45,907 nucleotides of DNA from Thermoleophilia bacterium (GTDB lineage Bacteria > Actinomycetota > Thermoleophilia > BMS3ABIN01), in assembly GCA_041658445.1 (NCBI GenBank), contig JBBAAB010000001.1, positions 1 through 45,907 of the forward strand. Reading direction: 5' to 3'. The position numbers and the translations under genes are program-made. This document shows, one piece after another, positions 1,941-45,907 of the stretch. Below the pieces are notes generated by a model. It saw only the letters and a program-made list of their open reading frames with translations, was not told where the DNA came from and did not search any database. Numbering within the stretch: the stretch's first letter is position 1; the number at the start of each line of letters is the position of its first letter.

Positions 1941-2156
1941 CCCAACGGATGCGAGCTAAACTGCAATGCCGAGGGCGGCATAGGGGCACCCGTCGGCGTG
2001 CAACTTGCGCATCTCGAAGTATTCCGCCGTCGATGCCTGGGTACAATTCGGCCAGCAGAATCGGCAGGCGTGTACGTCCCCGTCCCACCAAGCCATTTCC
2101 AAAAGACGCATAGCCTCTAGCCGCCTGGCGTTGTCAGTTTCAGCGACTTGTTGGGC
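1940..2156 (-). repeat. attC-like site b4 (217 bp, long translated loop)
   Basis: Sense strand: GCCCAAC-AAGTC-GCT[G]AAACTG[A]C ... G CAGTTT AGC-TCGCATCC-GTTGGGC. AAACTG/CAGTTT covary. Confidence 0.7.
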
Positions 2157-2258
2157 GGCGTCGAGCCAATCAGCAAACTTCACAGCATGCACATGAATGT
2201 CGGGATCGCCCCGTTCCGAAAGATACTGCCTAAGCAAATCTCTATACCTGCCCATCAT
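1956..2258 (-). CDS. Cassette ORF b4, hypothetical Cys/His-rich protein
   Basis: GGAGAA RBS; the ORF runs through the attC arm and ends at the conserved TAG in the 3' arm (..IAV*). Confidence 0.65.
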   Translation of the reverse strand: MMGRYRDLLRQYLSERGDPDIHVHAVKFADWLDAAQQVAETDNARRLEAMRLLEMAWWDGDVHACRFCWPNCTQASTAEYFEMRKLHADGCPYAALGIAV

Positions 2259-2275
2259 TTCTCCTTCGGGCGACC

Positions 2276-2486
2276 GCCCAACGAGCTAAACTGCGAGCCG
2301 CCGTGCCATACAGGCTGGCTTCGGGCAACGATCATCGTAGGTTTGACACCCACAGTCTGGGCATGTCTTCAGGCGGCGCCCGCCGTGTGCGGCCAACTCC
2401 AATTCGCAGCCAGCAAGATGCCCGTTCTGGAACCCACACTCGGGGCAAATACTGAAGGCGGCGTCAGTTTCAGCGAGTTGTTGGGC
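2276..2486 (-). repeat. attC-like site b3 (211 bp, long translated loop, short 3' spacer)
   Basis: Sense strand: GCCCAAC-AACTC-GCT[G]AAACTG[A]C ... G CAGTTT AGC-TC-GTTGGGC. Confidence 0.7.
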
Positions 2487-2750
2487 GGCCAAGTCGGCAA
2501 TCCAAGTGGTCTCGTTCCCGCGCATCATCGCCGTCACAACTATGTCGAAGGCCTCTTTGCATGCCGGGCACGTCATGGACTGCTGAAATCTTACCGGCCT
2601 CCAAGCTTCAGCGAGTTGTTGGGCGGCGACATCATCTAACAAGGCCAACAAAGGCAACACCGGTATCAGGGCATTCCGAGAGTGCCGCGCAAGTGCCCTC
2701 TCTGCCCGAGTGCGAATGTCATCCAGGCCCTTCTGTGTTACGTACTTCAT
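2286..2750 (-). CDS. Cassette ORF b3, hypothetical zinc-ribbon-rich protein (CPAC, CPECG, CPDCGC)
   Basis: GAGGGAAC RBS; contains an orphan attC 5' arm plus the b3 arm in frame (AAQQLAEA.. twice). Confidence 0.65.
   Translation of the reverse strand: MKYVTQKGLDDIRTRAERALARHSRNALIPVLPLLALLDDVAAQQLAEAWRPVRFQQSMTCPACKEAFDIVVTAMMRGNETTWIADLAAQQLAETDAAFSICPECGFQNGHLAGCELELAAHGGRRLKTCPDCGCQTYDDRCPKPACMARRLAV
2603..2630 (-). repeat. Orphan attC 5' arm (R''+L'' only) inside ORF b3
   Basis: Sense strand: GTCGCCGCCCAACAACTCGCTGAAGCTT, with no partner 3' arm before the next 5' arm. Confidence 0.6.
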
Positions 2751-2776
2751 CGTTCCCTCATTCGGGCGTGGCGACC

Positions 2777-2865
2777 GTCCAACGGATGTGAGCTAAGCCG
2801 CTCGCCGAACCCCATCATTCGTGTCGTTGTCGCCAACAAGAGTCGGCTTCAGCGAGTTGTTATAC
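2777..2865 (-). repeat. attC-like site b2 (89 bp)
   Basis: Sense strand: GTATAAC-AACTC-GCT[G]AAGCCG[A]CTC ... GAG CGGCTT AGC-TCACATCC-GTTGGAC. Confidence 0.8.
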
Positions 2866-3044
2866 GGCAGCGCCCCGTGCTTGCGCGCATACCTATACTC
2901 GGCGTAATGAGATAGAACCACGTGCTCCCGCACGTCGTCTTCCCATCCCTCAAACCCACAGAGCACACATGAGCCCTTGGTCTGAAGCAGGCCGCCGTGC
3001 AGATTCTTAGCAATCCAAGCATCAATCCTCTGTCTGATCCTCAT
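2793..3044 (-). CDS. Cassette ORF b2, hypothetical protein
   Basis: AGGAGGAA RBS; ends at the TAG of the attC 3' arm (..RAA*); reads the 5' arm in a different frame (YNNSLKPT). Confidence 0.65.
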   Translation of the reverse strand: MRIRQRIDAWIAKNLHGGLLQTKGSCVLCGFEGWEDDVREHVVLSHYAEYRYARKHGALPYNNSLKPTLVGDNDTNDGVRRAA

Positions 3045-3066
3045 GCCATTCCTCCTGTGCGCTGCC

Positions 3067-3187
3067 GTATAACGGATGCGAGCTAAGCTGCCGGGCCTTT
3101 GGTGGCGAGGTAAGACGCCTTTGACTCGGCATCCCTCAATAGCCCCGCCAGCCGCTTGGTGCGGTCAGCTTCAGCGAGTTGTTCGAC
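3067..3187 (-). repeat. attC-like site b1 (121 bp)
   Basis: Sense strand: GTCGAAC-AACTC-GCT[G]AAGCTG[A]CCG ... CGG CAGCTT AGC-TCGCATCC-GTTATAC. Confidence 0.8.
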
Positions 3188-3310
3188 GGCGACTTCATCG
3201 CGCAGGCGCAGAAACTCCGCCGTGACCCGTTGTATGTCATCGACTCGCAGCGTGGCAACGAGCGCTATGCACCAAATCTTGTCGCGGCTTGCATCTCTAG
3301 GATCAATCAT
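3083..3310 (-). CDS. Cassette ORF b1, hypothetical protein
   Basis: GGAGGGAAC RBS then ATG at 3310; ends at the attC TAG (..PAA*). Confidence 0.65.
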   Translation of the reverse strand: MIDPRDASRDKIWCIALVATLRVDDIQRVTAEFLRLRDEVAVEQLAEADRTKRLAGLLRDAESKASYLATKGPAA

Positions 3311-3333
3311 CGTTCCCTCCATTCAGGCGTGGC

Positions 3334-3354
3334 GACCGTCGAACTAGTGATTCG
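3334..3354 (-). other. Array-leading junction AATCACTAG|TTCGACGGTCGCC (attI-like site or promoter remnant)
   Basis: The same 11-mer AATCACTAGTT heads array A at 5770-5791. Confidence 0.4.
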
Positions 3355-3388
3355 GCGTCAAAATCGACGCATATCTCGCTTCTCGGGC

Positions 3389-3700
3389 CTACTTTGCAAC
3401 TTGCTTTGTCGTCGCGTTCGCCCGCCTTCGCAGGGCGTCGTATGCCTCTTGTCCCATTCTCTCAATCACCCACTCGTAGAACAGCGTCGGATTCCCATGC
3501 GCCCACAGGTGGCACGCAAAACAGAGAGAGTAAGCGTTGTCTTCGTCCCACCTTACTGATTTGTTCCTGCGGCTGAACACATGGGCACAGTGCAAACCAG
3601 CATGTTTTGGCCCATAATACTTGTGACACCTCTCGCAGCCATGCCCGGCCCTGGCACGAATGAAGTCCGAGAACTCGGCGTCCCTCTTGTCGCGCTTCAG
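3389..3700 (-). CDS. NinG/Rap-like zinc-finger HNH-type protein; start codon unresolved
   Basis: FSDFIRAR..GCERC..HCAHVFSRR..N..LCFACH pattern. The conserved N-terminal part lies upstream of the first ATG/GTG/TTG (TTG at 3595). The frame is open only to 3736, with only CTG candidates (3700, 3724). Confidence 0.55.
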   Translation of the reverse strand: MKRDKRDAEFSDFIRARAGHGCERCHKYYGPKHAGLHCAHVFSRRNKSVRWDEDNAYSLCFACHLWAHGNPTLFYEWVIERMGQEAYDALRRRANATTKQVAK

Positions 3701-4005
3701 CGGTCTATCTCCCTCTGAAGCCAGCGAGGCAAATCCTCAAAGTCCTGATTTGGATCGCGCCACCACTCAATGAGTCTCCACACCAGCCCTGCCGCCTCCG
3801 CCAAGTCGTCCTCCGTCTCGGCCAACTGGCGGCGGGCGTCGTCGCGCTCGCGACGCGCCCACCACGCCTCACTCTTCAGGGCCCATCGTTCATATTCATC
3901 CATCTTCTCACTCCTTCCCCGCGTCCCGGTGCGGACAATGGTCTGCGAGTTGTCTACATGCGTGAACGCACGGTAGCCCTCAATCTCTGTCCGGTGGTCA
4001 TCCAT
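3697..4005 (-). CDS. Hypothetical Trp/Arg-rich protein
   Basis: AGGAGG RBS 7 nt upstream of ATG 4005; follows attC a5. Confidence 0.6.
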   Translation of the reverse strand: MDDHRTEIEGYRAFTHVDNSQTIVRTGTRGRSEKMDEYERWALKSEAWWARRERDDARRQLAETEDDLAEAAGLVWRLIEWWRDPNQDFEDLPRWLQREIDR

Positions 4006-4622
4006 CTTTCGCCTCCTGGCGACCGCCCAACGAGCTGAGCTGCCGGGCCTTTGCAGCGGCAACCGCTGAACATGCACAGCTTCTCTATGGGATGGTGCAC
4101 CGATCTGGGGTGCCCGGCATTGTCAGTTTCAGCGACTTGTTGGGCGGCGGGCTTCTCCTTGAGGGCGGCGCGGGCTTCGTCCAGTCTCATCAGCGCCAAT
4201 GTCGTCTCCGAGGCGTGGGGCCCAAGGTCGGACTCCAACTCCATGTAGGATTCAGCGGCCTTGCGGAACTTCCCCAGCGCCTCGATGCGGGCCACTAGCC
4301 AATCAACCTCCGTCAGCATTACTTCGTATGTGCCCGGCAGGGCCAGGCGATCCTTGATTGTTTGCAGGTTCATGGCTTCTCCTTTGAGGGCGGCACGAAG
4401 GGCGTCGAAGTCCTCTTCGGGAACCGCCACCCATCTGCCGATGAACTTCGGGTCATCGTAGATGATGACACTGCGCCTCAATTGTGCCACCTCCTCCAGC
4501 GCCTCGATGCGGGCTTCCAAGGCGGATACGGCAGCAACGGCCATCCACTTATGATTGCTCTCCCCAGCTACCTCGGCAGCATTGAAACAGTTTGCGACAA
4601 ACTCCGCTATCTTTGGTATCAT
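3954..4622 (-). CDS. Hypothetical coiled-coil protein with a C-terminal Cys/His module; reads through attC a5
   Basis: ATG at 4622. The usual TAG in the attC 3' arm is CAG here, so the ORF runs 24 codons further and overlaps the next gene start. Confidence 0.55.
   Translation of the reverse strand: MIPKIAEFVANCFNAAEVAGESNHKWMAVAAVSALEARIEALEEVAQLRRSVIIYDDPKFIGRWVAVPEEDFDALRAALKGEAMNLQTIKDRLALPGTYEVMLTEVDWLVARIEALGKFRKAAESYMELESDLGPHASETTLALMRLDEARAALKEKPAAQQVAETDNAGHPRSVHHPIEKLCMFSGCRCKGPAAQLVGRSPGGERWMTTGQRLRATVRSRM
4025..4145 (-). repeat. attC-like site a5 (121 bp, Cys/His-module loop, short 3' spacer)
   Basis: Sense strand: GCCCAAC-AAGTC-GCT[G]AAACTG[A]C..GCCGGGC ... GCCCGG CAGCTC AGC-TC-GTTGGGC. 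Confidence 0.7.
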
Positions 4623-4625
4623 CCT

Positions 4626-4913
4626 CTACTCCTTCCCTGCGAGGGCGGCAATGTACGCGTCCTTCTCGTCCGCCGTCATGCCCTCATACGGGTTGCAAGC
4701 CGGGCCATTCCCCTCGACTTGTTGGGCGGCGAGAGCCTCCGGAGAGCCGCAATACGGGCAGAACGACACGGAATCCTGCATCATCCAGTCTGATGCCTCA
4801 GCCTCTTTGCAGGAGGCCACAAACGGGAGGGCCAACACCACATAGCCCATGTCGCAGTTGCCACACACCACAACCGGGAACTCATACGGGATGTGCAATT
4901 TCATCGTTGTCAT
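4626..4913 (-). CDS. Cassette ORF a4, hypothetical Cys-rich protein with an orphan attC R'' relic
   Basis: GAGGAGAG RBS; an internal CGCCGCCCAACAAGTCGAGG relic (4714-4733) is translated as AAQQVE. Confidence 0.6.
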   Translation of the reverse strand: MTTMKLHIPYEFPVVVCGNCDMGYVVLALPFVASCKEAEASDWMMQDSVSFCPYCGSPEALAAQQVEGNGPACNPYEGMTADEKDAYIAALAGKE

Positions 4914-4939
4914 TCGCTCTCCTCACGGGCGTGGCGACC

Positions 4940-5065
4940 GCCCAACGAGCTGAGCTGCCGGACTCACCACTCGCCAGGCATATCGTCAATGTAGCCCTCA
5001 TCAATGACGTGTTCAAGCATCTGCTTTGCAATTGAAGGCCGGTCAGCTTCAGCGAGTTGTTCGAC
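4940..5065 (-). repeat. attC-like site a3 (126 bp)
   Basis: Sense strand: GTCGAAC-AACTC-GCTGA[A]GCTG[A]CCGG ... CCGG CAGC TCAGC-TC-GTTGGGC. Confidence 0.75.
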
Positions 5066-5182
5066 GGCGAGGCGTCTGGCAACTCTAAACCCAGCCATAA
5101 ACCCGACGCGATGCTGATCTCGCCACCCGCGGCGCCCGGCCTGGCGCTTCCACCATTTGTCAAACTCTTCTGTTGCGGGCAT
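4964..5182 (-). CDS. Cassette ORF a3, hypothetical protein
   Basis: ATG at 5182; reads through the 5' arm (AVEQLAEAD) and stops in the loop. Confidence 0.6.
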   Translation of the reverse strand: MPATEEFDKWWKRQAGRRGWRDQHRVGFMAGFRVARRLAVEQLAEADRPSIAKQMLEHVIDEGYIDDMPGEW

Positions 5183-5205
5183 TTCGCACTCCAGTTAGTG
5201 GCGCC

Positions 5206-5335
5206 GTTGAACGGATGCGAGCTAAGCTGCCGGGCCTTTGCAGCGGCATCCGCTGAACATGCACAATTTCTCCGTGGGATGATGCAATGATGGGGGGTGC
5301 CCACATTGGCAGGCCCGGTCAGCTTCTTGTTGGGC
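5206..5335 (-). repeat. attC-like site a2 (130 bp, Cys/His-module loop)
   Basis: Sense strand: GCCCAAC-AAG-AAGCTG[A]CCGGGCC ... GGCCCGG CAGCTT AGC-TCGCATCC-GTTCAAC. Positions 5210-5325 are a perfect inverted copy of 10798-10913. Confidence 0.8.
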
Positions 5336-5449
5336 GGCGAGACCGCGGGCATAGCCCGCCTCGAATCCCTTGCGAGAATCAAACTTGTTTGCGTCCTGAT
5401 CCACCTCGGGACTCAGCCACCACTTCTCGAACTCGCTCATCTCGGGCAT
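5222..5449 (-). CDS. Cassette ORF a2, hypothetical protein ending in module RACQCGHPPSLHHPTEKLCMFSGCRCKGPAA
   Basis: GGAGACGAGG RBS; ends at the attC TAG. Confidence 0.65.
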   Translation of the reverse strand: MPEMSEFEKWWLSPEVDQDANKFDSRKGFEAGYARGLAAQQEADRACQCGHPPSLHHPTEKLCMFSGCRCKGPAA

Positions 5450-5472
5450 TTCCTCGTCTCCTTCGGGCGACC

Positions 5473-5561
5473 GTCCAACGGATGTGAGCTAAGCCGCTCG
5501 GCTAACCCTCTTCGACCTGGAACCGCGCTTGGGCCGAGTCGGCTTCAGCGAGTTGTTAGCC
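5473..5561 (-). repeat. attC-like site a1 (89 bp)
   Basis: Sense strand: GGCTAAC-AACTC-GCT[G]AAGCCG[A]CTCGGC ... GCCGAG CGGCTT AGC-TCACATCC-GTTGGAC (15 bp stem, 2 bulges). Confidence 0.85.
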
Positions 5562-5752
5562 CGCTCACCACGGGCAATGTACCGATACGAAATTCCTTCC
5601 TCAAACTTGTAGAGGAAGCATGCGCGCCCGAGACCGTCCACATAGCCAACCTCGGTGGCGTTCTCTGAGACAACGCGGGCAACCTCACCCTTGCTATTGC
5701 CAAAGGCGGAGACCAGGAACTCGATTCTGGGAGCGTCAGTCACCTTCGCCAT
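5489..5752 (-). CDS. Cassette ORF a1, hypothetical protein
   Basis: GAGAGAGGG RBS; ends at the attC TAG (..RAA*). Confidence 0.65.
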   Translation of the reverse strand: MAKVTDAPRIEFLVSAFGNSKGEVARVVSENATEVGYVDGLGRACFLYKFEEGISYRYIARGERANNSLKPTRPKRGSRSKRVSRAA

Positions 5753-5769
5753 TCAAGACCCTCTCTCGT

Positions 5770-5791
5770 TGCGGGCTAACTAGTGATTATA
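5770..5791 (-). promoter_or_regulatory. Array-A leading junction TATAATCACTAG|TTAGCCCGC (perfect -10 hexamer abutting the first cassette; attI-like?)
   Basis: Sense TATAAT at 5791-5786, with the cassette boundary 6-7 nt downstream. No good -35. The AATCACTAGTT 11-mer is shared with 3334-3354. Confidence 0.4.
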
Positions 5792-5827
5792 CGGCCGCTG
5801 TGTAAACTTGCGCGCCGAGTGTGCAAA

Positions 5828-5947
5828 TCATGTCACAAGCCAACCGGCAACAAACCCAAGAACGAATGCCGCAATTAGTGCTAGACAGCCCACCATCTCA
5901 GTAGTGCCACAGTCTCTCTCTTCGTTTGCCACCAAGTAGTCTGTCAC
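5828..5947 (-). CDS. Possible small single-pass membrane protein
   Basis: GTGA start/stop overlap with the upstream gene; hydrophobic C-terminal half; below the size cut-off of the ORF track. Confidence 0.3.
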   Translation of the reverse strand: MTDYLVANEERDCGTTEMVGCLALIAAFVLGFVAGWLVT

Positions 5948-6162
5948 AGCCCCGCCTCCTTATCAAGCCACTCTGAAAACGCAGCCGCCTGTTGGTTCCT
6001 ACGAATAATCATACTCAGGCGGTGGGCCTCCTGCTTCTTGGACTCGTGCTTCCCGCCCCTCCCAGACCAGGGCTGTGATCCGGCAAACTCGTGCGCCTGC
6101 CGCTCCGCTATTCTCATGGCTCGGTAAACAGTCTCGAACGTCACTTCAGCCTCCTCAGGCAC
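5944..6162 (-). CDS. Hypothetical protein
   Basis: ORF co-oriented with and overlapping its neighbours. Confidence 0.5.
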   Translation of the reverse strand: MPEEAEVTFETVYRAMRIAERQAHEFAGSQPWSGRGGKHESKKQEAHRLSMIIRRNQQAAAFSEWLDKEAGL

Positions 6163-6458
6163 AGGCTAACCTCGTACTTCCTGCCATTGCACCTTACCCT
6201 CATTCCGACTGGCCACGTTCCCTCTGCCAGATCGGCCTTGAATTCGGCCTTGGAGAATACCCTCCCGGAAGGCCACAAGTCGTTCGTCTCTCTCAGGGTC
6301 TCGTAACCCGCCGGCATCTTCGGCCGTCCGCGCCTATTGGCCGCCCGGCAATCACTACAGATGCTTCGATGAACGAGGTTCTTGAGCCGCCTGTCCTTCT
6401 CGCAGAACTGCTTTTCTGGTTTGTCCCAGCCACATTGTTTGCAGGTGCGCGTGTTCAT
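6141..6458 (-). CDS. Hypothetical zinc-ribbon protein (CKQC...CSDC)
   Basis: The ATG sits 6 nt downstream of a promoter -10 (leaderless). Confidence 0.6.
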   Translation of the reverse strand: MNTRTCKQCGWDKPEKQFCEKDRRLKNLVHRSICSDCRAANRRGRPKMPAGYETLRETNDLWPSGRVFSKAEFKADLAEGTWPVGMRVRCNGRKYEVSLCLRRLK

Positions 6459-6464
6459 AACTAG

Positions 6465-6492
6465 ATTATGCGCCTGTTTCTGGGGTTGTCAA
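6465..6492 (-). promoter_or_regulatory. sigma70-like promoter, leaderless start at 6458
   Basis: Sense strand: TTGACA(6492-6487)-16 nt-CATAAT(6470-6465)-6 nt-ATG. Confidence 0.5.
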
Positions 6493-6534
6493 GCCCCTCT
6501 TTTAGCGTCTGTTGATGGTGGGCAGTAGGCGCAG

Positions 6535-6858
6535 TCATTCAAGTCCGCGGCTGAGCTTGGCGCATTCCCTGAACTCTGCCCAGTTGTCTACAATGCGCCT
6601 ATCCATTGCGCGGTTTAGCCAAGACGGAACAAGCCCGATGGCGGGACCCCCGTGAACGTGCTCCATGTGATACCGCGCCCCGGGATCAAGCGGGCGACCG
6701 CGCCAGTCTACACCGGACGCAAACAGCGCTATCACCTCTTCGTATGTGCTGGTACACGGCCTGCCCTTTTCCCGGCAATGGCAGAGGAACTTGTTCGCTC
6801 GCCCTCTCGGTGTTCTGTCCCAGACCCGTCTCTTGTCCATTTTCGCCTCGTTCCCCAT
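6535..6858 (-). CDS. Hypothetical protein, weak HNH-like motif (HMEHVHGG...WLNRAM)
   Basis: The ATG sits 6 nt downstream of a promoter -10. The motif match is weak. Confidence 0.5.
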   Translation of the reverse strand: MGNEAKMDKRRVWDRTPRGRANKFLCHCREKGRPCTSTYEEVIALFASGVDWRGRPLDPGARYHMEHVHGGPAIGLVPSWLNRAMDRRIVDNWAEFRECAKLSRGLE

Positions 6859-6864
6859 GCCGTA

Positions 6865-6892
6865 AGTCTACTCCCGTTTGGTCTTGTGTCAA
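6865..6892 (-). promoter_or_regulatory. sigma70-like promoter, leaderless start at 6858
   Basis: Sense strand: TTGACA(6892-6887)-16 nt-TAGACT(6870-6865)-6 nt-ATG. It shares GGAGTAGACT with the promoter at 324-352. Confidence 0.5.
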
Positions 6893-7194
6893 GGCGGAAT
6901 CATTTCACCTAGGCATCGTCCCGACGTAGCCTCAAACGGCGCTGGTCTTCGCTTCACTCGCCTCGGCTACGCCGTCCGGTATGCGGCGGCGAAAGTGTCT
7001 CAATTGGTTTGCCAGATGTGTGAGCCGGTTTGGTTCGGCGGCATAAGGGCACACGTTTTACCCGGCTGTCCCGCCCTGCGATCTTGTTGACGCGGTTTCG
7101 CACCCGCAGATTTGAGACTATAGGGTGTGTCATATCGTCGGAACTTCTGGACAACTACCGACATACTTGCAGACTTGTGTAAAGAGTTCTGTCC

Positions 7195-7383
7195 TCAAGC
7201 CGGCTTGTGTAAGGGCTTCGTATGCTTCTCAACAATGGCTTGCCATCGGACGAACTGCTCTCCCGGTCTTCCGGTTGTCGCGGGATACAAACGAATCCAC
7301 TTCCGATAAACCTCTACCGGGAAATGGACAATCGGCTTGCCGTTCTTGTCCTTGCAGGTGCGACAGGGCTTGCTAGCGTTCAA
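7195..7383 (-). CDS. Hypothetical small protein (CRTC)
   Basis: ORF co-oriented with and overlapping the upstream gene end. Confidence 0.45.
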   Translation of the reverse strand: MNASKPCRTCKDKNGKPIVHFPVEVYRKWIRLYPATTGRPGEQFVRWQAIVEKHTKPLHKPA

Positions 7384-7543
7384 TGTTGTGGATTGTCATG
7401 TAGCGCGCTATCGCGTGTAGAATCTCAACGCAGTCCGCGGTATCCAGCGGGCGGTCGTCGCGGTTGATGGCGCCGAGCGCGGCCTTGAGTTGCTTCGCGG
7501 CAACGCCCACCTCTTTCAGTTCTTGGTCTTCGATGACTGTCAT
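7373..7543 (-). CDS. Hypothetical small protein
   Basis: GAGGA RBS 4 nt upstream of ATG 7543. The longer track ORF would overlap the tRNA-like element. Confidence 0.5.
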   Translation of the reverse strand: MTVIEDQELKEVGVAAKQLKAALGAINRDDRPLDTADCVEILHAIARYMTIHNIER

Positions 7544-7556
7544 GTTGTCCTCTAGT

Positions 7557-7633
7557 GGTGCGGGGCCGGATTCGAACCGACTGGTCATGCCTAAATGCTT
7601 CCCCGTTCGGGCCATTTATACAGCCGCCCGCAC
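7557..7633 (-). ncRNA. tRNA-like element: intact acceptor stem and T-arm, no foldable anticodon arm
   Basis: Sense strand: GTGCGGG...GTCGG-TTCGAAT-CCGGC-CCCGCAC-C. The acceptor pairing is 7/7 bp and the T-loop is canonical. A weak D-stem is present (GCTG/TGGC). No 5-bp stem with a 7-nt loop exists in the middle 45 nt. Confidence 0.4.
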
Positions 7634-7657
7634 CATGAACCCGGAAGTCGCTCATAT

Positions 7658-7686
7658 AGATTACGCCTCATTCTAGGGAAAGTCAA
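7658..7686 (-). promoter_or_regulatory. sigma70-like promoter directly upstream of the tRNA-like element
   Basis: Sense strand: TTGACT(7686-7681)-17 nt-TAATCT(7663-7658). Confidence 0.4.
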
Positions 7687-7854
7687 GCCCTGCCCTCCGG
7701 GGACTTGCAGCTTCGCGTGCATGTCATGTATCGTTGGGCGACGGCATACACCCACAATCGGCCACATGTCAACCCCCGGCGGCATTTTGCCTACATCTGG
7801 CGTCTTGACAGCCTCTGGTTCGGGCTTATGCTGTAGGCAGCTTAGGAGGCTGAA

Positions 7855-8580
7855 ATGAGAGAAATGCAGAAGGCACTCGTACTTCCCAGCGTGAACGAGG
7901 AAAGGTTTCTGGCGATTATGTCTGGGGCCGAGGTCGCGCTGGCAGAGGCGACCGAGATGGTGGACATCCTGAATCTTCGGAGTGACGCCGACGCCTACTC
8001 AGCCATGTTGGCGGCCAAGGGGGCCGGCCCGTACGCCCAACGGGTCAAGGTCTACCAGTTGAAGTGCGAGCGGAAGGCCGGCGACATTCTCAATGTCTTT
8101 CCGGCCGGGGACGGGCCGAAACCGGCTGGCGCGCCCGCCGGATACAAGAATGCGGCCGCCGCGGCAGAAGAGCTTGGCATCACCCGCATGATGCGGCAGT
8201 CTTGGCAACGGGAGGCGCGCCTCCCGGACCGCATCTTCTCGGCCTGGGTAAAGGACCTTCTTGAAAACAACATAGAGGTATCCCAGCGCGCTCTTTTGCG
8301 CCTTGCCAGGCCAACCGTTGCGCCCTCGCCGCCCGAGAAGCCGCTGACCATTCTTGACCGCTGGGCAGAGACGCTCAAGGAACTCAGCGACATCCTGTAT
8401 TCCATCGGGACATACCGGACCGCAAAGGAAGCCAAGTTGCACCTGTCCTACGCCAAGCACGCTGTTGCCGGCGTGACCACCATGTTGGCCGACGCCAAGG
8501 CGCTGGTGCGCGGCATTCTGGATGCCTACAACGACACGGTGGGCGGAAATCTAAGCATAGCGGGCGAGACGCCCGCGTAG
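7855..8580 (+). CDS. Hypothetical protein, possible DNA-binding (HTH-like ELGITRMMRQSW)
   Basis: AGGAGG RBS upstream; 241 aa. Confidence 0.6.
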   Translation: MREMQKALVLPSVNEERFLAIMSGAEVALAEATEMVDILNLRSDADAYSAMLAAKGAGPYAQRVKVYQLKCERKAGDILNVFPAGDGPKPAGAPAGYKNAAAAAEELGITRMMRQSWQREARLPDRIFSAWVKDLLENNIEVSQRALLRLARPTVAPSPPEKPLTILDRWAETLKELSDILYSIGTYRTAKEAKLHLSYAKHAVAGVTTMLADAKALVRGILDAYNDTVGGNLSIAGETPA

Positions 8581-8588
8581 GAGAACCA

Positions 8589-8765
8589 ATGAACGAGGTC
8601 CTAGACTTCGACTCTGTGGTGATCTTCGCCGCCGCCGTCCTGAAGACGGACGCGGTGCCGGCGGAGTATGACAGCCTGCCGGAGTGGGTGAGGCAGACGG
8701 CAGAGGAACTTGTGGCGACGAGCGTGCGCTGTGGCCCAGGCTGTACTCTGGACGCGAAGCCCTAG
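8589..8765 (+). CDS. Hypothetical small protein (58 aa)
   Basis: AGGAGAA RBS 4 nt upstream; below the ORF-track cut-off; hand translated. Confidence 0.5.
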   Translation: MNEVLDFDSVVIFAAAVLKTDAVPAEYDSLPEWVRQTAEELVATSVRCGPGCTLDAKP

Positions 8766-8829
8766 CTTCAAGTCCCCGGCAGGGCTGGACGTTCTCAAGG
8801 GGTAGATTTTGTTGTGGCACATTTGGGGC

Positions 8830-8858
8830 TTGACACAGGACAAAAACGGGTTGATACT
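8830..8858 (+). promoter_or_regulatory. sigma70-like promoter in the 237-nt non-coding gap
   Basis: TTGACA(8830-8835)-17 nt-GATACT(8853-8858). Confidence 0.4.
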
Positions 8859-9002
8859 CGTGAGTGAGCCGTGCGCAGCGAGTAGGCGCTGATGGAAGTC
8901 CAGCCACACAGGCGGCCCTGAAGCCTACAGCTAAAGAGGACGCCGGTTGGCACCTGTGAGCCGAACGTGACTTCGGCCGCCCGGCCCAACTTGGAGACAG
9001 AC

Positions 9003-9209
9003 ATGAAATGTCCAACGTGCGAAGGCGAGGGGAACTGGGTCGAATTGGTCTCTATGGAACTCGGGGGCCCCGTTGTTGCATGCGGGCGATGCCATGAGAC
9101 CGGCAGGGTGAGTATTTGGAACGTTCTGCGCGAGAAATTGTGGAATATCGCCCCCGAGCGGTTCATGGACTGGTATGTGGACAAGTTCTCTCCATACAGA
9201 GAGGGTTGA
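9003..9209 (+). CDS. Hypothetical zinc-ribbon protein (CPTCEGEG...CGRCHETG)
   Basis: GGAGA RBS 6 nt upstream of the ATG. Confidence 0.6.
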   Translation: MKCPTCEGEGNWVELVSMELGGPVVACGRCHETGRVSIWNVLREKLWNIAPERFMDWYVDKFSPYREG

Positions 9210-9210
9210 A

Positions 9211-9456
9211 ATGGAAGAAGAACGTCCCAATCTACGTCCCAGGTTGAACAAAGCCCTGAGAGAGAACGCCGAACTGAGGAAGCGGCTGGAGTGGCTTGAC
9301 TCCAACTGCGGGTTCTATGTTCGCGAGGGGGGGGAACTTCTTCTGGCTGGCATTGAGTACCGGTGGTTCCCGAAGAGACACAAGACATTGAACGAGGCCA
9401 TTGACGCTGAATTACTGGTGGCTACCGCCGACTTGAAGCCGGAACAGGACGCATAG
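9211..9456 (+). CDS. Hypothetical protein
   Basis: GAGGG RBS; start adjacent to the upstream stop. Confidence 0.55.
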   Translation: MEEERPNLRPRLNKALRENAELRKRLEWLDSNCGFYVREGGELLLAGIEYRWFPKRHKTLNEAIDAELLVATADLKPEQDA

Positions 9457-9467
9457 GGAGTCTGGGC

Positions 9468-9623
9468 ATGAGGCACACAATCGGAATGGCCCTTCTTGTT
9501 GTCGGCGCTGCGGTGTCCCTGATCTGCGTGGCGTACTCGGCAATCAAAGACCACAACTGGTGGCCCGCATTTGGAATGGGCGTTTTCATGTACGCCGCAG
9601 CCTTGGCGTGGGCATTCACATAG
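9468..9623 (+). CDS. Small two-TM membrane protein (51 aa)
   Basis: GGGAGTCTGGGC RBS context shared with several genes; hand translated. Confidence 0.5.
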   Translation: MRHTIGMALLVVGAAVSLICVAYSAIKDHNWWPAFGMGVFMYAAALAWAFT

Positions 9624-9634
9624 GGGGAGGGCGC

Positions 9635-10006
9635 ATGGACTACACGCCGGGGACGCTGCGGAAGTTGCCGTATGTTCCTCGCCTGCACGAGGAGGATATC
9701 ATGGCCCACGCCGATGCGTGGCAGGCCGACCGCAAGAGGCTGCTTCAGTACGGCCAACACCTTCCGGGCTGTATGGAGCCGGGTCTTGTGGACGAAGACT
9801 GCGCGTGTGGGTGGAGAGAGGCCCGCATGGCCCTCGCGCCCAGCGATACTTCGCAAGCCAAGTCCCCGGAGGGAAACGAGTGGCCACCGAAACGTCTCGT
9901 GATTGACGGGGACAATGATCCGGTTCGAGTTCCATACGAGAACCTGTGTCCCGAATGCAACCGTGTAACCAACGGGCGACGTTGCGCCCACTGCCAAGGA
10001 GAATGA
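9635..10006 (+). CDS. Hypothetical Cys-rich protein
   Basis: GGGGGAGG RBS. Confidence 0.6.
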   Translation: MDYTPGTLRKLPYVPRLHEEDIMAHADAWQADRKRLLQYGQHLPGCMEPGLVDEDCACGWREARMALAPSDTSQAKSPEGNEWPPKRLVIDGDNDPVRVPYENLCPECNRVTNGRRCAHCQGE

Positions 10007-10008
10007 AG

Positions 10009-10626
10009 ATGATCGGCACACCGAAGACTCTCAAGGTTCATGTAAGCCGCAAGCTGGGGGACAACGAATTCGGCTCTTACGGCGTGGATGCAGAACTAGA
10101 GGTAAGCCTTCCCCCCGACGCCAATCGAGACGAGGCGTTTGACGAGAACGACGCGTGGCTGACCGCGGCGGTAGGGCGGAGCATGGCCGAGAAGAAGGCT
10201 TCGATCCAGAAGATGCAGGCAGAGGCGGCCGAGGCAAAGAAGGGGCAGACCGTTGAGGCCGAAGAGGCAGAGACAAAACAAGACAAGCCGAAGGCAGACG
10301 CAAAAGAAGGGGAGGAACTGACGTTCAAGTGTGTCAAGTTCACCCTTGCGAAGCTGCCGGACAAGAAGTTCAAGTTGGAGCTGTACCCGGAGATCAAAGA
10401 CGCGCCAGGCAAGTATCCGACGATCAAGTTCACCGCCGAACGCGAGAAGATGTGGGACATGCTGCATGATGTCGCAGACGACTACGACTTCTCGGACTTG
10501 CCCGTTGAGTATGGTTGTGAATTTCTCGTCCACTACGCCATTGGTAGAGAGTTCGAGATCAAGGCCGGAGAACACAAGGGCGAGAAGTCGCACTACAAGG
10601 ACCTTTTGTCCATCGTTGCCATGTAG
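10009..10626 (+). CDS. Hypothetical acidic/Lys-rich protein
   Basis: AAGGAGA RBS. The G of its TAG stop is the base before the first cassette boundary. Confidence 0.6.
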   Translation: MIGTPKTLKVHVSRKLGDNEFGSYGVDAELEVSLPPDANRDEAFDENDAWLTAAVGRSMAEKKASIQKMQAEAAEAKKGQTVEAEEAETKQDKPKADAKEGEELTFKCVKFTLAKLPDKKFKLELYPEIKDAPGKYPTIKFTAEREKMWDMLHDVADDYDFSDLPVEYGCEFLVHYAIGREFEIKAGEHKGEKSHYKDLLSIVAM

Positions 10627-10658
10627 TTGGGCGGTCGCCACGCCAGAGAGAGGGAACA

Positions 10659-10901
10659 GTGGACATCAACATGGCTTTAGTTGACGAGGCTAGGCGCTAT
10701 CATGGTTTCTGCGGGCACGGGGCAGACTTCGATGTGTGTACGGCGCTTGCCTGCCGTCTAGCGCGGCACATTTTTCTCGCCGCCCAACAAGTCGCTGAAG
10801 CTGACCGGGCCTGCCAATGTGGGCACCCCCCATCATTGCATCATCCCACGGAGAAATTGTGCATGTTCAGCGGATGCCGCTGCAAAGGCCCGGCAGCTTA
10901 G
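10659..10901 (+). CDS. Cassette ORF c1, hypothetical protein ending in the Cys/His module
   Basis: GAGGGAAC RBS then GTG; ends at the attC TAG (..GPAA*). Confidence 0.6.
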   Translation: MDINMALVDEARRYHGFCGHGADFDVCTALACRLARHIFLAAQQVAEADRACQCGHPPSLHHPTEKLCMFSGCRCKGPAA

Positions 10902-10917
10902 CTCGCATCCGTTAGGC
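10782..10917 (+). repeat. attC-like site c1 (136 bp, Cys/His-module loop)
   Basis: GCCCAAC-AAGTC-GCT[G]AAGCTG[A]CCGGGCC ... GGCCCGG CAGCTT AGC-TCGCATCC-GTTAGGC. Confidence 0.85.
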
Positions 10918-10938
10918 GCACCCAGAAGGAGAAGGCCA

Positions 10939-11136
10939 ATGACCAAAGAAGAGGCCCTGGCATCAGTCGAGAAGATCAGGGAAGAGGCGGATGACGATGA
11001 GGTGGCACATTCGCATGAGGATGGTCTGCGCGCCCAGTTCATTGCGCATGTGGCGGAGATGCCCGGCGAGTTGGGCGAGTTGGCCAAGATTGTTCTCTCA
11101 ACGGACGAGATTTCGTTCGGCCGCTGGTGCGCCTAA
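10939..11136 (+). CDS. Cassette ORF c2, hypothetical acidic protein
   Basis: AAGGAGAAGG RBS; the TAA stop lies inside R'' (GCCTAAC). Confidence 0.65.
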   Translation: MTKEEALASVEKIREEADDDEVAHSHEDGLRAQFIAHVAEMPGELGELAKIVLSTDEISFGRWCA

Positions 11137-11218
11137 CAACTCGCTGGAGCGGACGCCTGTTGGCGAGCCGAGTAGATCGTTAGGGTTCGGGGCGCAGCTT
11201 AGCTCCGATCCGTTGGAC
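11131..11218 (+). repeat. attC-like site c2 (88 bp)
   Basis: GCCTAAC-AACTC-GCT[G]GAGCGG[A]CGCC ... GGCG CAGCTT AGC-TCCGATCC-GTTGGAC. Confidence 0.8.
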
Positions 11219-11242
11219 GGTCGCCCGAAGTTGGAGGTTGAA

Positions 11243-11602
11243 ATGCCCGCACCGTATCTGTCTATAGAGGCAATGGCCGCATGGATTGCTCTGGACCGAG
11301 AGAACAATGGTGCCAGCAAGGAGTGGTGGGATTGGGCCGTATCCGCCTATGGTGTCGCCGCCCAACAAGAAGCTGAAGCTGACGTGGCCGTTGGATCGCA
11401 TCTGAAGCGGGTCCTGGAAGATGACGAGATCGTGGGCGAAGGGGGCTCGTTCCACATGGAGCGCATGGACGACGACCACATTTGGTTCCAGGTGGATAGC
11501 ATCGCGTTCGACCTCGATGTGAAGAGGGGCAAACTGTTGTGGAGGCCGCAGTGCAATGGGGGCTGGCCCGCTCTGGCTCTCTTGCTGGGCCACGCAGCTT
11601 AG
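11243..11602 (+). CDS. Cassette ORF c3, hypothetical protein
   Basis: GGAGG RBS; reads through the 5' arm (AAQQEAEAD) and ends at the attC TAG (..GHAA*). Confidence 0.65.
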   Translation: MPAPYLSIEAMAAWIALDRENNGASKEWWDWAVSAYGVAAQQEAEADVAVGSHLKRVLEDDEIVGEGGSFHMERMDDDHIWFQVDSIAFDLDVKRGKLLWRPQCNGGWPALALLLGHAA

Positions 11603-11618
11603 CTCCGGTCCGTTATAC
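11360..11618 (+). repeat. attC-like site c3 (259 bp, long translated loop)
   Basis: GCCCAAC-AAGAA-GCT[G]AAGCTG[A]CGTGG ... CCACG CAGCTT AGC-TCCGGTCC-GTTATAC. Confidence 0.7.
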
Positions 11619-11638
11619 GCACGGAAGATGAGGGTCAA

Positions 11639-11968
11639 ATGGACAACTTGAAAGCATGGATGTTGGAGGCTGCCGACGAGGAGCCAATCCTGGCAGTCGT
11701 GATTGGCGAGATGGGATGGGGCGACTACGGCAGCGATGCTGTGCCCCAGTATCAGGAACAGCGTCGCGGCGAGGTCCTGTCTTGGGACGAGGCCGCCCCG
11801 ATGATCGACTACGAGTTTAGATCGGGGTATGGCGCGCCGAGATGCAATGCGATTGTGGCGTGGACGGCAAGCAAGGTGATCTCGATTTCGCAGTATGACG
11901 GCTCCACGTCGGTGTTCACGCTCCCGCGCAATCCGACCGCACACATGCCCGGCATGCCGGGGGGCTAA
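11639..11968 (+). CDS. Cassette ORF c4, hypothetical protein
   Basis: GAGGG RBS; stops before the attC. Confidence 0.65.
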   Translation: MDNLKAWMLEAADEEPILAVVIGEMGWGDYGSDAVPQYQEQRRGEVLSWDEAAPMIDYEFRSGYGAPRCNAIVAWTASKVISISQYDGSTSVFTLPRNPTAHMPGMPGG

Positions 11969-11977
11969 CGCCCGTGC

Positions 11978-12066
11978 GTATAACAACTCGCTGAAGCCGA
12001 CTCGGCCCAAGCGGGGTTCAAAGTCGAAGAAGGTTGGCCACGCAGCTTAGCTCCGGTCCGTTATAC
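11978..12066 (+). repeat. attC-like site c4 (89 bp)
   Basis: GTATAAC-AACTC-GCT[G]AAGCCG[A]CTCGGCC ... GGCCACG CAGCTT AGC-TCCGGTCC-GTTATAC. Confidence 0.8.
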
Positions 12067-12089
12067 GGCTCCACGCAGGAGGTGGAAAC

Positions 12090-12281
12090 ATGAAGTACAT
12101 CAAGGTCTCTCGGAGCGACATGCCCGGCTCCTATACCGATACCCTAAAGGGGGCGGCGAATTGTGTCGAGGGGGAGTTTGACGGAATTGAGGGGGTGCCA
12201 GTCGGAACGTCTATCACCCTGACGGTGGTCGAGATGTCCGAGGAGGAATACGCCAAGTTGCCGGAGTTCGATGGTTGGTAG
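12090..12281 (+). CDS. Cassette ORF c5, hypothetical acidic protein
   Basis: AGGAGGTGG RBS; stops 2 nt before the R'' extension. Confidence 0.65.
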   Translation: MKYIKVSRSDMPGSYTDTLKGAANCVEGEFDGIEGVPVGTSITLTVVEMSEEEYAKLPEFDGW

Positions 12282-12283
12282 CC

Positions 12284-12310
12284 GTATAACAACTCGCTGG
12301 AGCGGACGCC
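12284..12310 (+). repeat. Truncated attC (5' arm only; deletion derivative of the c2-type site)
   Basis: GTATAAC-AACTCGCTGGAGCGGACGCC is joined directly to the CGCAGTTGGAGGATGAAATG leader. Confidence 0.7.
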
Positions 12311-12327
12311 CGCAGTTGGAGGATGAA

Positions 12328-12738
12328 ATGCCAGCACAAGAAGAGTTCGATTTGGAGTTCTCACGCCGAGGGAATTATGGGACGCCCAAGACGGTCTGCC
12401 GGACATGGTATGAGTTGGGATGGTTTGCCTCACGGCGCGCCGCCCAACAAGAAGCTGACCGGTGCCCAGACCGCGGAGAGGAGGCATGGCGCGCAGTGTT
12501 GGATTTGTGCGAGCCTCTACGGCCCGACGAGACAGGAATTGGAAGGCTGTTGGGCATTCGTGCGTGGGCGCTTTCGGCGCTTGCAGAACTAGAGCCCGAC
12601 AAACAGTGTGCCTGCGGTCGAGAGGGTTCGCTAGACCACGAGGACTTCTGCATGCCCAAGGGGATGTGGCCGAGGCATTGGATAACGGGGGGGGCTATAG
12701 ACCCCGATGCCGCCCCCAAGGAGAAGCCCAATGGCTAA
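12328..12738 (+). CDS. Hypothetical protein containing an orphan attC 5' arm (12438-12463)
   Basis: GGAGGATGAA RBS; internal CGCCGCCCAACAAGAAGCTGACCGG is translated as AAQQEADR. Confidence 0.6.
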   Translation: MPAQEEFDLEFSRRGNYGTPKTVCRTWYELGWFASRRAAQQEADRCPDRGEEAWRAVLDLCEPLRPDETGIGRLLGIRAWALSALAELEPDKQCACGREGSLDHEDFCMPKGMWPRHWITGGAIDPDAAPKEKPNG

Positions 12739-44437: not shown

Positions 44438-44833
44438 TCAACTGTAAACCCCGGCCCGGTACAACTCGGACACAATCCCTCTCTGTATCTGCCCCGCCCA
44501 GAATGCAATGTCCTCTTCTATGGCCCGCGCCCCCGCCTGATCTCCCCGAAACTTGTGCCGGAATATCTTCGGCGCATTCCGCATTAGCCAGCAAGCAGCA
44601 TGGACGCTCTCGTGTGCCACAACCTCCGTCCCCAAACACCCCCTGCTGAAGTGGATATTGGAATACTTGCTTCCCATATCCACCAATGTCGCCCTGCCCC
44701 ACCGACCCTTTGCCCCATCTCTGGTAACAGCATCCCACATCTGCTCGCGGTTGGCCCAGACATACACGCGAACCTTGCGCCGGGTGCCCGTAGCCGACAG
44801 CGAGAACCGGTGAACAGGCTTCGTTTTCTTCAT
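44438..44833 (-). CDS. Putative zinc metallopeptidase-like protein (HESVH)
   Basis: HExxH motif VAHESVHAACW. Confidence 0.5.
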   Translation of the reverse strand: MKKTKPVHRFSLSATGTRRKVRVYVWANREQMWDAVTRDGAKGRWGRATLVDMGSKYSNIHFSRGCLGTEVVAHESVHAACWLMRNAPKIFRHKFRGDQAGARAIEEDIAFWAGQIQRGIVSELYRAGVYS

Positions 44834-45372
44834 GGCTTACCCCCGCCACCGGCGAATTGCACCGGGGCAGAACTTCTCATGTCGCATACGAATTGGTATC
44901 TGTCCTCGTCCTGAAGCCAAGATCGTAGTTCTTTCGAATTTTTGGAATTATTGCACTTCGGGCACGCCGGGACAATGTTCTCCTTGGTGTACCCGCCGCC
45001 CGACTTGACCGGAACAACGTGATCCTGGTCAACGGCCGTCAATACAGCATCGCAGTAGGCGCAGCGATTGCCGAAGGCGGCTAGCGTATCCAGCCAGCCC
45101 GCGGCGGTCAGCGTGGCCGGAAGCCCGCGCACAGCAGCCTTGCGGCGCTTTGCCTTGGCCCGGCCATTTGCCGCCTGGCGGGCAGCGTAGCCAGGACTGG
45201 CGGCAAGCAATGCCCTGTAGCTGGCCCGCACCGTTGCCCGCCTACACTCCAAACATGCCCGCTTGAACTTGGGAATTTCCGACCCGCAGCCACAATATCT
45301 GGGCGGACGCACGCGGTTGGCCGTGCGCCACCTTGCTCTTGCCCGCCTGTCATCTGCATTTTTATATGGCAT
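44830..45372 (-). CDS. HNH endonuclease
   Basis: DQDHVVPVKSGGGYTKENIVPACPKCNNSK plus an N-terminal Cys-rich region. Confidence 0.8.
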   Translation of the reverse strand: MPYKNADDRRARARWRTANRVRPPRYCGCGSEIPKFKRACLECRRATVRASYRALLAASPGYAARQAANGRAKAKRRKAAVRGLPATLTAAGWLDTLAAFGNRCAYCDAVLTAVDQDHVVPVKSGGGYTKENIVPACPKCNNSKNSKELRSWLQDEDRYQFVCDMRSSAPVQFAGGGGKP

Positions 45373-45602: not shown

Positions 45603-45907
45603 CTACCCACTCTCCTCGTCCCCGTAGGCTCTCACCAGCTCAGGACCTATGTTGATCTGTACTGCTACAGTCGGCATGCTTGCCTTGTCGGCCTCTGGCA
45701 GCATCTTTGCAAGCCGGAGGGCGAACTTGCCTGCCTCGACACCCTCTCGTGGCTTATTCATGGCGTTGGCTAGCGCACTTCTAGCGAACTCGCCGGCCAG
45801 CTCGCCATATGCGTCGCTTGGCCTGCCGCCGGGCTTGCCCGTATGTTCGGTGTACACCTCCACAAGAGCCGCGCGCGCCTTAGAGGCCGCAAGCTCCTGC
45901 CGGCGTG
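45603..45907 (-). CDS. 3' part of the wrap-around gene begun at 317
   Basis: Same frame through the 127-nt repeat; stop at 45603. Confidence 0.55.
   Translation of the reverse strand, partial: RRQELAASKARAALVEVYTEHTGKPGGRPSDAYGELAGEFARSALANAMNKPREGVEAGKFALRLAKMLPEADKASMPTVAVQINIGPELVRAYGDEESG
45781..45907. repeat. Terminal direct repeat copy 2
   Basis: Identical to nt 1-127. Confidence 0.95.

Follow-up and report, generated by a model that had tools for sequence, protein, structure and literature searches.

A perfect inverted duplicate of a protein-coding attC module in two oppositely oriented arrays of a phage genome

The 45,907-nucleotide stretch analyzed here (the window; contig JBBAAB010000001.1 of assembly GCA_041658445.1, deposited as a Thermoleophilia bacterium) codes for a large terminase, a portal protein, a major head protein, and a GH25 lysozyme, and this phage is contig C1 in a bin of 1.9 Mb and 76% completeness. 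It contains two oppositely oriented arrays of attC sites, the recombination sites of integron cassettes, and the two arrays share one identical 117-base site module that codes for a small zinc-type protein tail. The two copies lie in site a2 of the minus-strand array and site c1 of the plus-strand array. The duplicate was probably made by non-reciprocal homologous exchange anchored in the conserved arms of the attC sites, a reading that is held with moderate confidence.

Direct reading and a repeat finder agree on an exact inverted repeat between 5210-5326 (minus) and 10797-10913 (plus), with 117/117 nucleotides (nt) identical. The perfect inverted repeat reported in a preliminary description of this DNA is therefore real and one base longer than the 116 nt given there. 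When the genome was shuffled 30 times with dinucleotides preserved, the longest exact inverted repeats averaged 16.4 nt and reached at most 20. In a2, the copy takes in the loop and the 3′ arm as far as the GTT of the R′ box; in c1, it takes in part of the 5′ arm, the loop, and the 3′ arm, again as far as the GTT. As had been described, identity stops at this GTT (...CCGTT), which is followed by CAACGG in a2 and AGGCGC in c1, and the R′ boxes accordingly read GTTCAAC and GTTAGGC. Ungapped identity of the two loci in the 60 nt beyond the repeat is 25% and 32%, i.e., they are unrelated. The earlier statement that everything around the repeat differs thus holds for the outer flanks but not for a block of 16 to 17 nt (TCTCGCCGCCCAACAAG), which is identical beyond a 6-nt gap. 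With this block included, BLAST aligned a2 and c1 over 139 columns with 95.7% identity and one gap. The block is near-identical in at least two further sites and therefore reflects conservation within the family. The gap corresponds to six additional bases (TCGCTG) in the 5′ arm of c1 relative to a2; the length difference was correctly described, but it is not a deletion private to a2, as the same short arm, GCCCAACAAGAAGCTGACCGG, is found at 12443-12467.

Both copies had been proposed to be attC-type sites in oppositely oriented arrays, and this assignment is supported by a covariance model (R1) constructed from seven aligned attC sites of non-phage contigs of the bin, with the arm pairing as structure and zero phage sequence. 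Co-oriented arrays of sites with the form GYCTAAC-AACTCGCTGAAGCTGAC...CAGCTTAGCTCGAGGCC-GTTAGGC are present on five bin contigs (C106, C158, C251, C304, and C322). With filters off, R1 identified nine sites in the phage at E ≤ 5e-5, all within 2777-5561 (minus) or 10782-12066 (plus). Site c1 scored best of the nine (62.5 bits, E 4e-15) and a2 was the weakest (25.9 bits, E 5e-5). The complete c1 site extends from 10782 to 10917 (plus), and its boxes, R″ GCCCAAC and R′ GTTAGGC, fit the consensus sequences RYYYAAC and GTTRRRY. Its fold has an energy of -32.4 kcal/mol (z -2.84), and its bottom strand, folded as single-stranded DNA, forms an 8-bp stem of the R boxes, a spacer that is unpaired, another stem bearing two bulges of one base each, and a long variable arm. 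The bulged bases of classic attC sites are G and T; those on the bottom strand of c1 are C and T, a variant that is also found in the bacterial sites of the bin. Site c1 has each attC feature tested (boxes, hairpin, and model match), and its recombination by an integrase is predicted.

Site a2 (5206-5335, minus) has R″ GCCCAAC and R′ GTTCAAC, and the latter does not fit GTTRRRY, with C where R is required. Its R boxes pair only at AAC/GTT and the outermost G-C, its short 5′ arm lacks GCT[G], and its fold shows neither the R-box stem nor the GCT/AGC triplet and has one bulge fewer. By sequence and folding, a2 is a crippled attC copy and probably a poor integrase substrate. The 5′ arm type of these sites is found mainly in Chloroflexia and Chloroflexota metagenome-assembled genomes, often in dense arrays. 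In addition, the exact 3′ arm of the phage type was located on four metagenome contigs. One of them, L063, is a classical array with at least 11 co-oriented sites; R1 recovered 11 co-oriented sites in it, at 50 to 108 bits. The clustering of nine attC sites (E ≤ 5e-5) on a phage contig in which neither a tyrosine recombinase nor an integron integrase was found corresponds to a cluster of attC sites lacking integron integrase (CALIN).

The starts of the cassettes at c1, c2, c5, s4025, and s2777 are complementary to their own R″ boxes, which is the signature of G|TT junctions. This indirect signature suggests that integrase-type insertion shaped the arrays at some time. At the start of cassette c1, the junction G|TTGGGC (10626-10632, plus) is complementary to R″ GCCCAAC and overlaps the stop codon of the gene at 10009-10626. 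The first cassettes of both arrays begin at TAG|TTRRYC, complementary to their own R″ (TAG|TTAGCC at 5780, minus; TAG|TTGGGC at 10626, plus), and TATAAT is located directly upstream of the junction at 5780. No attI-like module common to the two inner array borders was found, the best local alignment between them being trivial.

The module is translated. It is in frame at the ends of the open reading frames (ORFs) 5222-5449 (minus; 75 amino acids [aa]) and 10659-10901 (plus; 80 aa) and codes for ...AAQQ(VA)EADRACQCGHPPSLHHPTEKLCMFSGCRCKGPAA in both, with the stop codon of each, TAG, lying within conserved GCTTAGCTC. The a2 ORF, which is a gene in the ENA record, combines an N-terminal domain of the MPxxEF.KWW type with the repeat tail LAAQQEADRACQCGHPPSLHHPTEKLCMFSGCRCKGPAA, and the G+C content of its N-terminal part is 0.58, 0.42, and 0.75 at codon positions 1, 2, and 3, respectively. 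The c1 ORF (80 aa from a GTG preceded by AGGGA, a plausible ribosome-binding site, or 76 aa from the ATG at 10671) has an unrelated, Cys/His-rich N-terminal part followed by the same tail. It is absent from the ENA gene table, where the a2 ORF is present, and its G+C pattern is coding-like (0.64, 0.44, and 0.62 at positions 1, 2, and 3) but weaker at the third position, so that a coding function for this ORF is plausible but not certain. A terminator-like hairpin with a T-run (TGCCGTCTAGCGCGGCA CATTTTT) is located at 10752-10768 (plus), just 5′ of the c1 R″ box and within the putative c1 ORF.

A third copy of the module, at site s4025 (4025-4145, minus; 27.9 bits), is 87% identical over 85 nt. 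It has CAG in place of the TAG stop and a 9-nt in-frame gap, and it is translated in the same frame near the C terminus (...AAQQVAETDNAGHPRSVHHPIEKLCMFSGCRCKGPAA...) of a 222-aa ORF (P0002; 3954-4622, minus). Its 39 codons show 5 synonymous and 7 non-synonymous differences, and the final 16 residues are invariant across the three tail copies. When a HMMER profile built from the three tails was compared with 1.84 billion representative proteins, it matched the phage's own proteins and one outside protein (P0003), the latter with a marginal E value of 1.9e-4. P0003 carries ACTCGHPRSRHSGIEKWCYVAGCQCK and has the Cys/His spacing of the phage tails (CxCGHPxSxH...EKxC...GCxCK), and this conservation gives the tail the look of a genuine small motif of the zinc type. 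P0003 is a lysine-rich protein of 115 aa, from another source of apparently low G+C content, with ACTCGHPRSRHSGIEKWCYVAGCQCK near its C terminus and more CxxC pairs upstream. The exact pattern of the module was absent from the viral, metagenome, and genome collections searched, and a word-based protein search matched only the query.

The short 5′ arm of a2 has a counterpart outside the significant sites. An orphan arm at 12439-12467 (plus), GCCGCCCAACAAGAAGCTGACCGG, is the same variant, 6 nt shorter, and lies within ORF 12271-12738 (plus). The N-terminal part of this ORF (MPAQEEFDLEF...) is paralogous to those of a2 (MPEMSEFEKWW...) and a1, and its tail contains a diverged Cys/His motif, CxCG...H...C (CACGREGSLDHEDFCMP). 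By sequence, this ORF resembles a fourth module copy in decay, from which the 3′ arm has disappeared. More generally, the conserved attC 5′ arm (2137-5561, minus; 10782-12303, plus) is translated in two frames depending on the cassette, as (A)AQQ[LV]AEAD in a2, c1, c3, s4025, a1, and others and as NNSLKPT in ORFs 5489-5752 and 2793-3044.

Copies a2 and c1 show zero differences, including at approximately 30 synonymous-site equivalents, compared with 13% divergence of the third copy. At 13% divergence, the probability of zero differences is ∼8e-8, and the 95% upper bound for divergence between a2 and c1 is 2.5%. Compared with the split from the third copy, the event that made them identical was therefore recent, and this contrast, with synonymous positions included, supports the recent exchange or gene conversion suggested previously. 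Comparison of the whole cassettes confined the likeness between a2 and c1 to the last ∼140 nt of each. The next-best pairs of sites are also cross-array (s5473/c4, 87% over 82 nt; s2777/c2, 77% over 84 nt), and in all three pairs the attC module alone is similar and the ORF bodies are unrelated. A crossover at G|TT swaps the sequence 3′ of the site and cannot provide different genes with one attC, which argues that another process moves attC modules here. The preliminary description had named GTT, where the identity ends, as the proposed crossover point, and a link to an integrase crossover is not supported: GTT is the end of the homologous module, and identity ceases there because the downstream cassettes are unrelated. 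At the other end, recurrence of the short arm at 12443-12467 indicates that this arm is older than the identity between a2 and c1 and that the tract begins inside the arm. A fresh deletion in a2 after conversion was considered for the 6-nt gap and rejected because of this identical arm.

In the proposed exchange, one copy would recently have been overwritten by the other through non-reciprocal homologous recombination, either by gene conversion or by template switching during phage replication. The exchange would be anchored in arms common to all sites (left, approximately GAAGCTGACCGG; right, the 3′ arm as far as GTT) and would leave a tract of 105 to 117 nt bounded by two conserved arms. Such a tract would halt where homology halts, with no extension into the unrelated flanks, and an integron integrase would not be required. 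A tract bounded by short shared homology is what gene conversion or template switching would be expected to leave, and the same logic has been documented for T4-type phages and their promoter-early stem-loop (PeSL) cassettes (Arbiol et al. 2010, PMC2839356).

Several points weigh against this reading. No phage recombinase was recognized in the scans performed: a six-frame search with PF00589 found no tyrosine recombinase on the phage contig, and no resolvase or other recombinase domain was found in the scanned ORFs of ≥150 aa (a part of the listed frames of that size) or in the ENA record's gene and Pfam table. It is ambiguous which copy was the donor, as c1 has the better attC and a perfect cassette start, whereas a2 has a paralogue with a related motif. 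Furthermore, searches for relatives of the phage returned GenBank phages with ≤29% terminase identity and none in IMG/VR (with a 241-aa protein of the middle segment and the terminase as queries), and the collections searched therefore offer no pre-exchange state for comparison. Finally, the evidence consists of assembled contigs, in which recombination intermediates and population structure are not visible. The mismatch between the R″ box of a2 and its cassette start was considered as an indicator of direction and rejected, as GCCCAAC is common to at least eight sites because of the coding constraint imposed by AAQQ.

Several other observations concern enzymes and RNA families. The phage encodes a LAGLIDADG homing endonuclease and an HNH endonuclease (349-786 and 44830-45372, both minus), and ORF 6141-6458 has weak PHROG matches of the endonuclease VII/HNH-like type. 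No Rfam family matched at gathering thresholds. No intact integron integrase was found above the TIGR02249 cutoff in the 76%-complete bin, sub-cutoff matches being located on contigs other than that of the phage. Bin contig C84 carries, at ∼5690-5960 (minus), a frameshifted remnant resembling the C terminus of an integron integrase (HTFRHS..LLENGYGIRTIQEL / MIYTHVFNQGGQG), adjoining an ORF that is Fic-like by eye.

The repeat copies enclose a segment of 5,470 bp (5327-10796) with diverging gene sets (minus strand, 5489-7615; plus strand, 7855-10626). A consensus scan located four promoter-like sites with perfect TTGACA in this segment, all of them pointing outward, and none in the repeats. When 5327-10796 was flipped in silico, every gene remained intact, including a2 and c1, and the changes were limited to two stop-to-stop frames in which the repeats are crossed out of frame. 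With diverging gene sets and outward promoters, the flipped form would keep its transcription logic and swap which outer array follows which inner operon. RecA-type pathways need a few tens of base pairs of homology, and 117 bp is well above this. The repeat is thus a plausible substrate for a coding-neutral homologous inversion of 5327-10796, the occurrence of which is putative, and if the segment inverts, homologous recombination is the likely route.

Active flip-flop, in which both orientations of 5327-10796 coexist and ongoing recombination keeps the copies identical by concerted evolution (as in plastid and herpesvirus inverted repeats), is an unlikely alternative origin of the identity. 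In its favor are the perfect identity, the coding neutrality of an inversion that leaves both gene sets transcribed outward, and the cross-array nature of each of the three attC pairs with the highest similarity, a pattern to be expected from repeated dealing of inner cassettes between the arrays. Nevertheless, the segment is in the same single orientation in every recorded contig. The ends of the window overlap (1-127 = 45781-45907), which makes it a closed circle of 45,780 bp, and ENA contig k141_646634, whose 45,921 bp are the sum of 45,780 and an overlap of 141 nt, matches the window collinearly and with 100% identity across 20.2 kb spanning both repeat copies. The circle is unbroken at the repeat in both of these contigs, the two that can be read. 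The end overlaps of 127 and 141 nt are presumably word sizes of different assemblers, that of the ENA contig being MEGAHIT with k = 141; in that case, as both exceed 117 nt, the junctions from flank through repeat to flank were carried by single assembly words. In addition, look-ups with the exact proteins of a2, a1, c2, and their neighbors found no contig in which an alternative junction carries the a1 or c2 genes. They returned only full-length contigs with unchanged neighbors, and every cluster was single membered. One apparent additional contig in these look-ups was rejected, as it reflected a difference between sources in the genes called. The single arrangement and the lack of an alternative-junction contig argue against a balanced flip-flop and are compatible with a minority isomer. 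The weight of these observations is reduced by their source: proteins of the phage are recorded in NCBI, JGI/IMG, and ENA, but all records probably derive from one sample and therefore bear on the correctness of the assembly rather than on population diversity, and assemblers drop minor paths. Only the longer proteins are in Logan, which would fit short-word contigs breaking at the repeat.

A broader reading extends homologous exchange to the whole region. The outward attC arrays might form an integrase-independent shuffling device, in which recombination between arms would flip the central early-promoter segment, re-deal cassettes between the two operons, and swap loop-coded C-terminal domains between unrelated proteins, a2 and c1 being the latest trace. 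This proposal is speculative and rather improbable as a description of this phage.

Exchange by an integrase is more doubtful still. A host IntI might have recombined the two sites at G|TT: the identity stops at GTT within R′, several junctions have cassette starts that match their own R″ boxes, and the bin contains both attC arrays and the broken IntI-like remnant on C84. However, a G|TT crossover cannot equip two different ORF bodies with the same attC, no crossover point coincides with the left end of the identity, and a2 lacks the R-box stem and one bulged base. An intact IntI was, moreover, not found in the 76%-complete bin. The geometry is also unfavorable. When Escudero et al. (2016, PMC4792948) placed an inverted attC pair on the Escherichia coli chromosome, no clear IntI1-dependent increase in recombination was observed, compared with an increase of five orders of magnitude for direct attC repeats. 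For inverted sites, replicative resolution, the pathway of attC reactions, converts the replicon to a linear form, an abortive outcome. Inversions made by integrases are known for double-stranded attI-type or secondary sites (PMC10127599) and not for pairs of folded attC sites.

Identity maintained by selection, under a double demand for attC folding and for coding of the zinc-type tail that tolerates no change, is highly improbable. The stretch is indeed both hairpin and coding, and its last 16 residues are invariant in three copies. The third copy, however, tolerates 13% nucleotide change, a 9-nt gap, and loss of the stop codon, and its five synonymous changes indicate that selection alone does not explain the identity of a2 and c1; furthermore, a2 is no longer a good attC site, which suggests that the structural constraint has been relaxed.

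An assembly artifact or two-strain chimera, which the metagenomic source without an isolate and the probable derivation of all records from one sample might have suggested and the first of which the preliminary description had named as part of a possible refutation, can be dismissed as extremely improbable, because an identical closed circle is present in two contigs whose end overlaps exceed the repeat and point to different assemblers, and because assemblers do not homogenize diverged copies.

The repeat can be compared with several known systems, among them phage CALINs. Among 10,705 phage genomes, Qi et al. (2023, PMC9892861) reported 17, all with two or more predicted attC sites and the best described with three; they also noted that attC directions diverge in one phage and showed that IntI1 recombines some of the phage sites. 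The phage studied here is similar in having attC-type sites beside small genes and no integron integrase found in the phage, and it differs in its at least nine significant sites, two outward arrays, translated loops, and identical pair of sites in opposite arrays. Neither a perfect inverted duplicate nor module-only mosaicism is reported in the searched text of PMC9892861. These two features and the translated loop add to what has been published on phage CALINs.

In PeSL cassettes, modules are shuffled by homologous recombination without a site-specific recombinase (PMC2839356). As in that system, where the small genes are non-essential early genes of T4-type phages, structured conserved repeats between small genes act here as portable homology, and cassette similarity is confined to the repeat module. 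PeSLs are non-coding promoter-terminator units, whereas the repeats here are attC sites of the integron type that also occur in a bacterial lineage, and part of the repeat is protein coding. Likeness to the canonical integron reaction between attC sites (PMC4792948) lies in the attC hallmarks of c1, in sequence and structure, and in the G|TT signature at several junctions; unlike that reaction, the event that formed the repeat parts an attC from its gene and joins inverted sites. A segment between inverted repeats, the flip of which would re-pair upstream and downstream parts, also recalls the invertible G and C segments of phages Mu and P1, invertons, and shufflons. Those systems have short repeats, an adjacent dedicated invertase, and both orientations observed, whereas here the repeat is a 117-bp coding attC module in one observed orientation, and the searches for tyrosine recombinases (six frames) and resolvases (scanned ORFs and Pfam table) found no invertase.

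Taken alone, the repeat is what recombination among dispersed repeats ordinarily produces. It is a real and recent duplication and a possible substrate for inversion, and a role as a switch is without support in the data seen. Its wider interest is that attC sites are usually viewed as non-coding substrates of one enzyme, whereas their conserved arms can here serve ordinary recombination as portable homology, with the attC loop, in this case a protein tail, moved independently of its own gene. Should this hold generally, phages with attC sites could do without an integrase in diversifying small accessory proteins and in rearranging their early region, and surveys that equate identical attC sites with integrase activity would over-interpret them.

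Some attC sites of the bin (C106, 367-540; C158, minus, ∼495, 1393, and 3590; C251, 2185-2380) contain an extra hairpin-like insert of 45 to 70 nt in the 5′ arm (CCTGGAAGGTCACC...GACCTTCGGC), and some of these have a further 24-nt insert (CCCACCAACAACGTGGGACCTTGT) in the 3′ arm. These inserts may represent a small nested element that targets attC sites.

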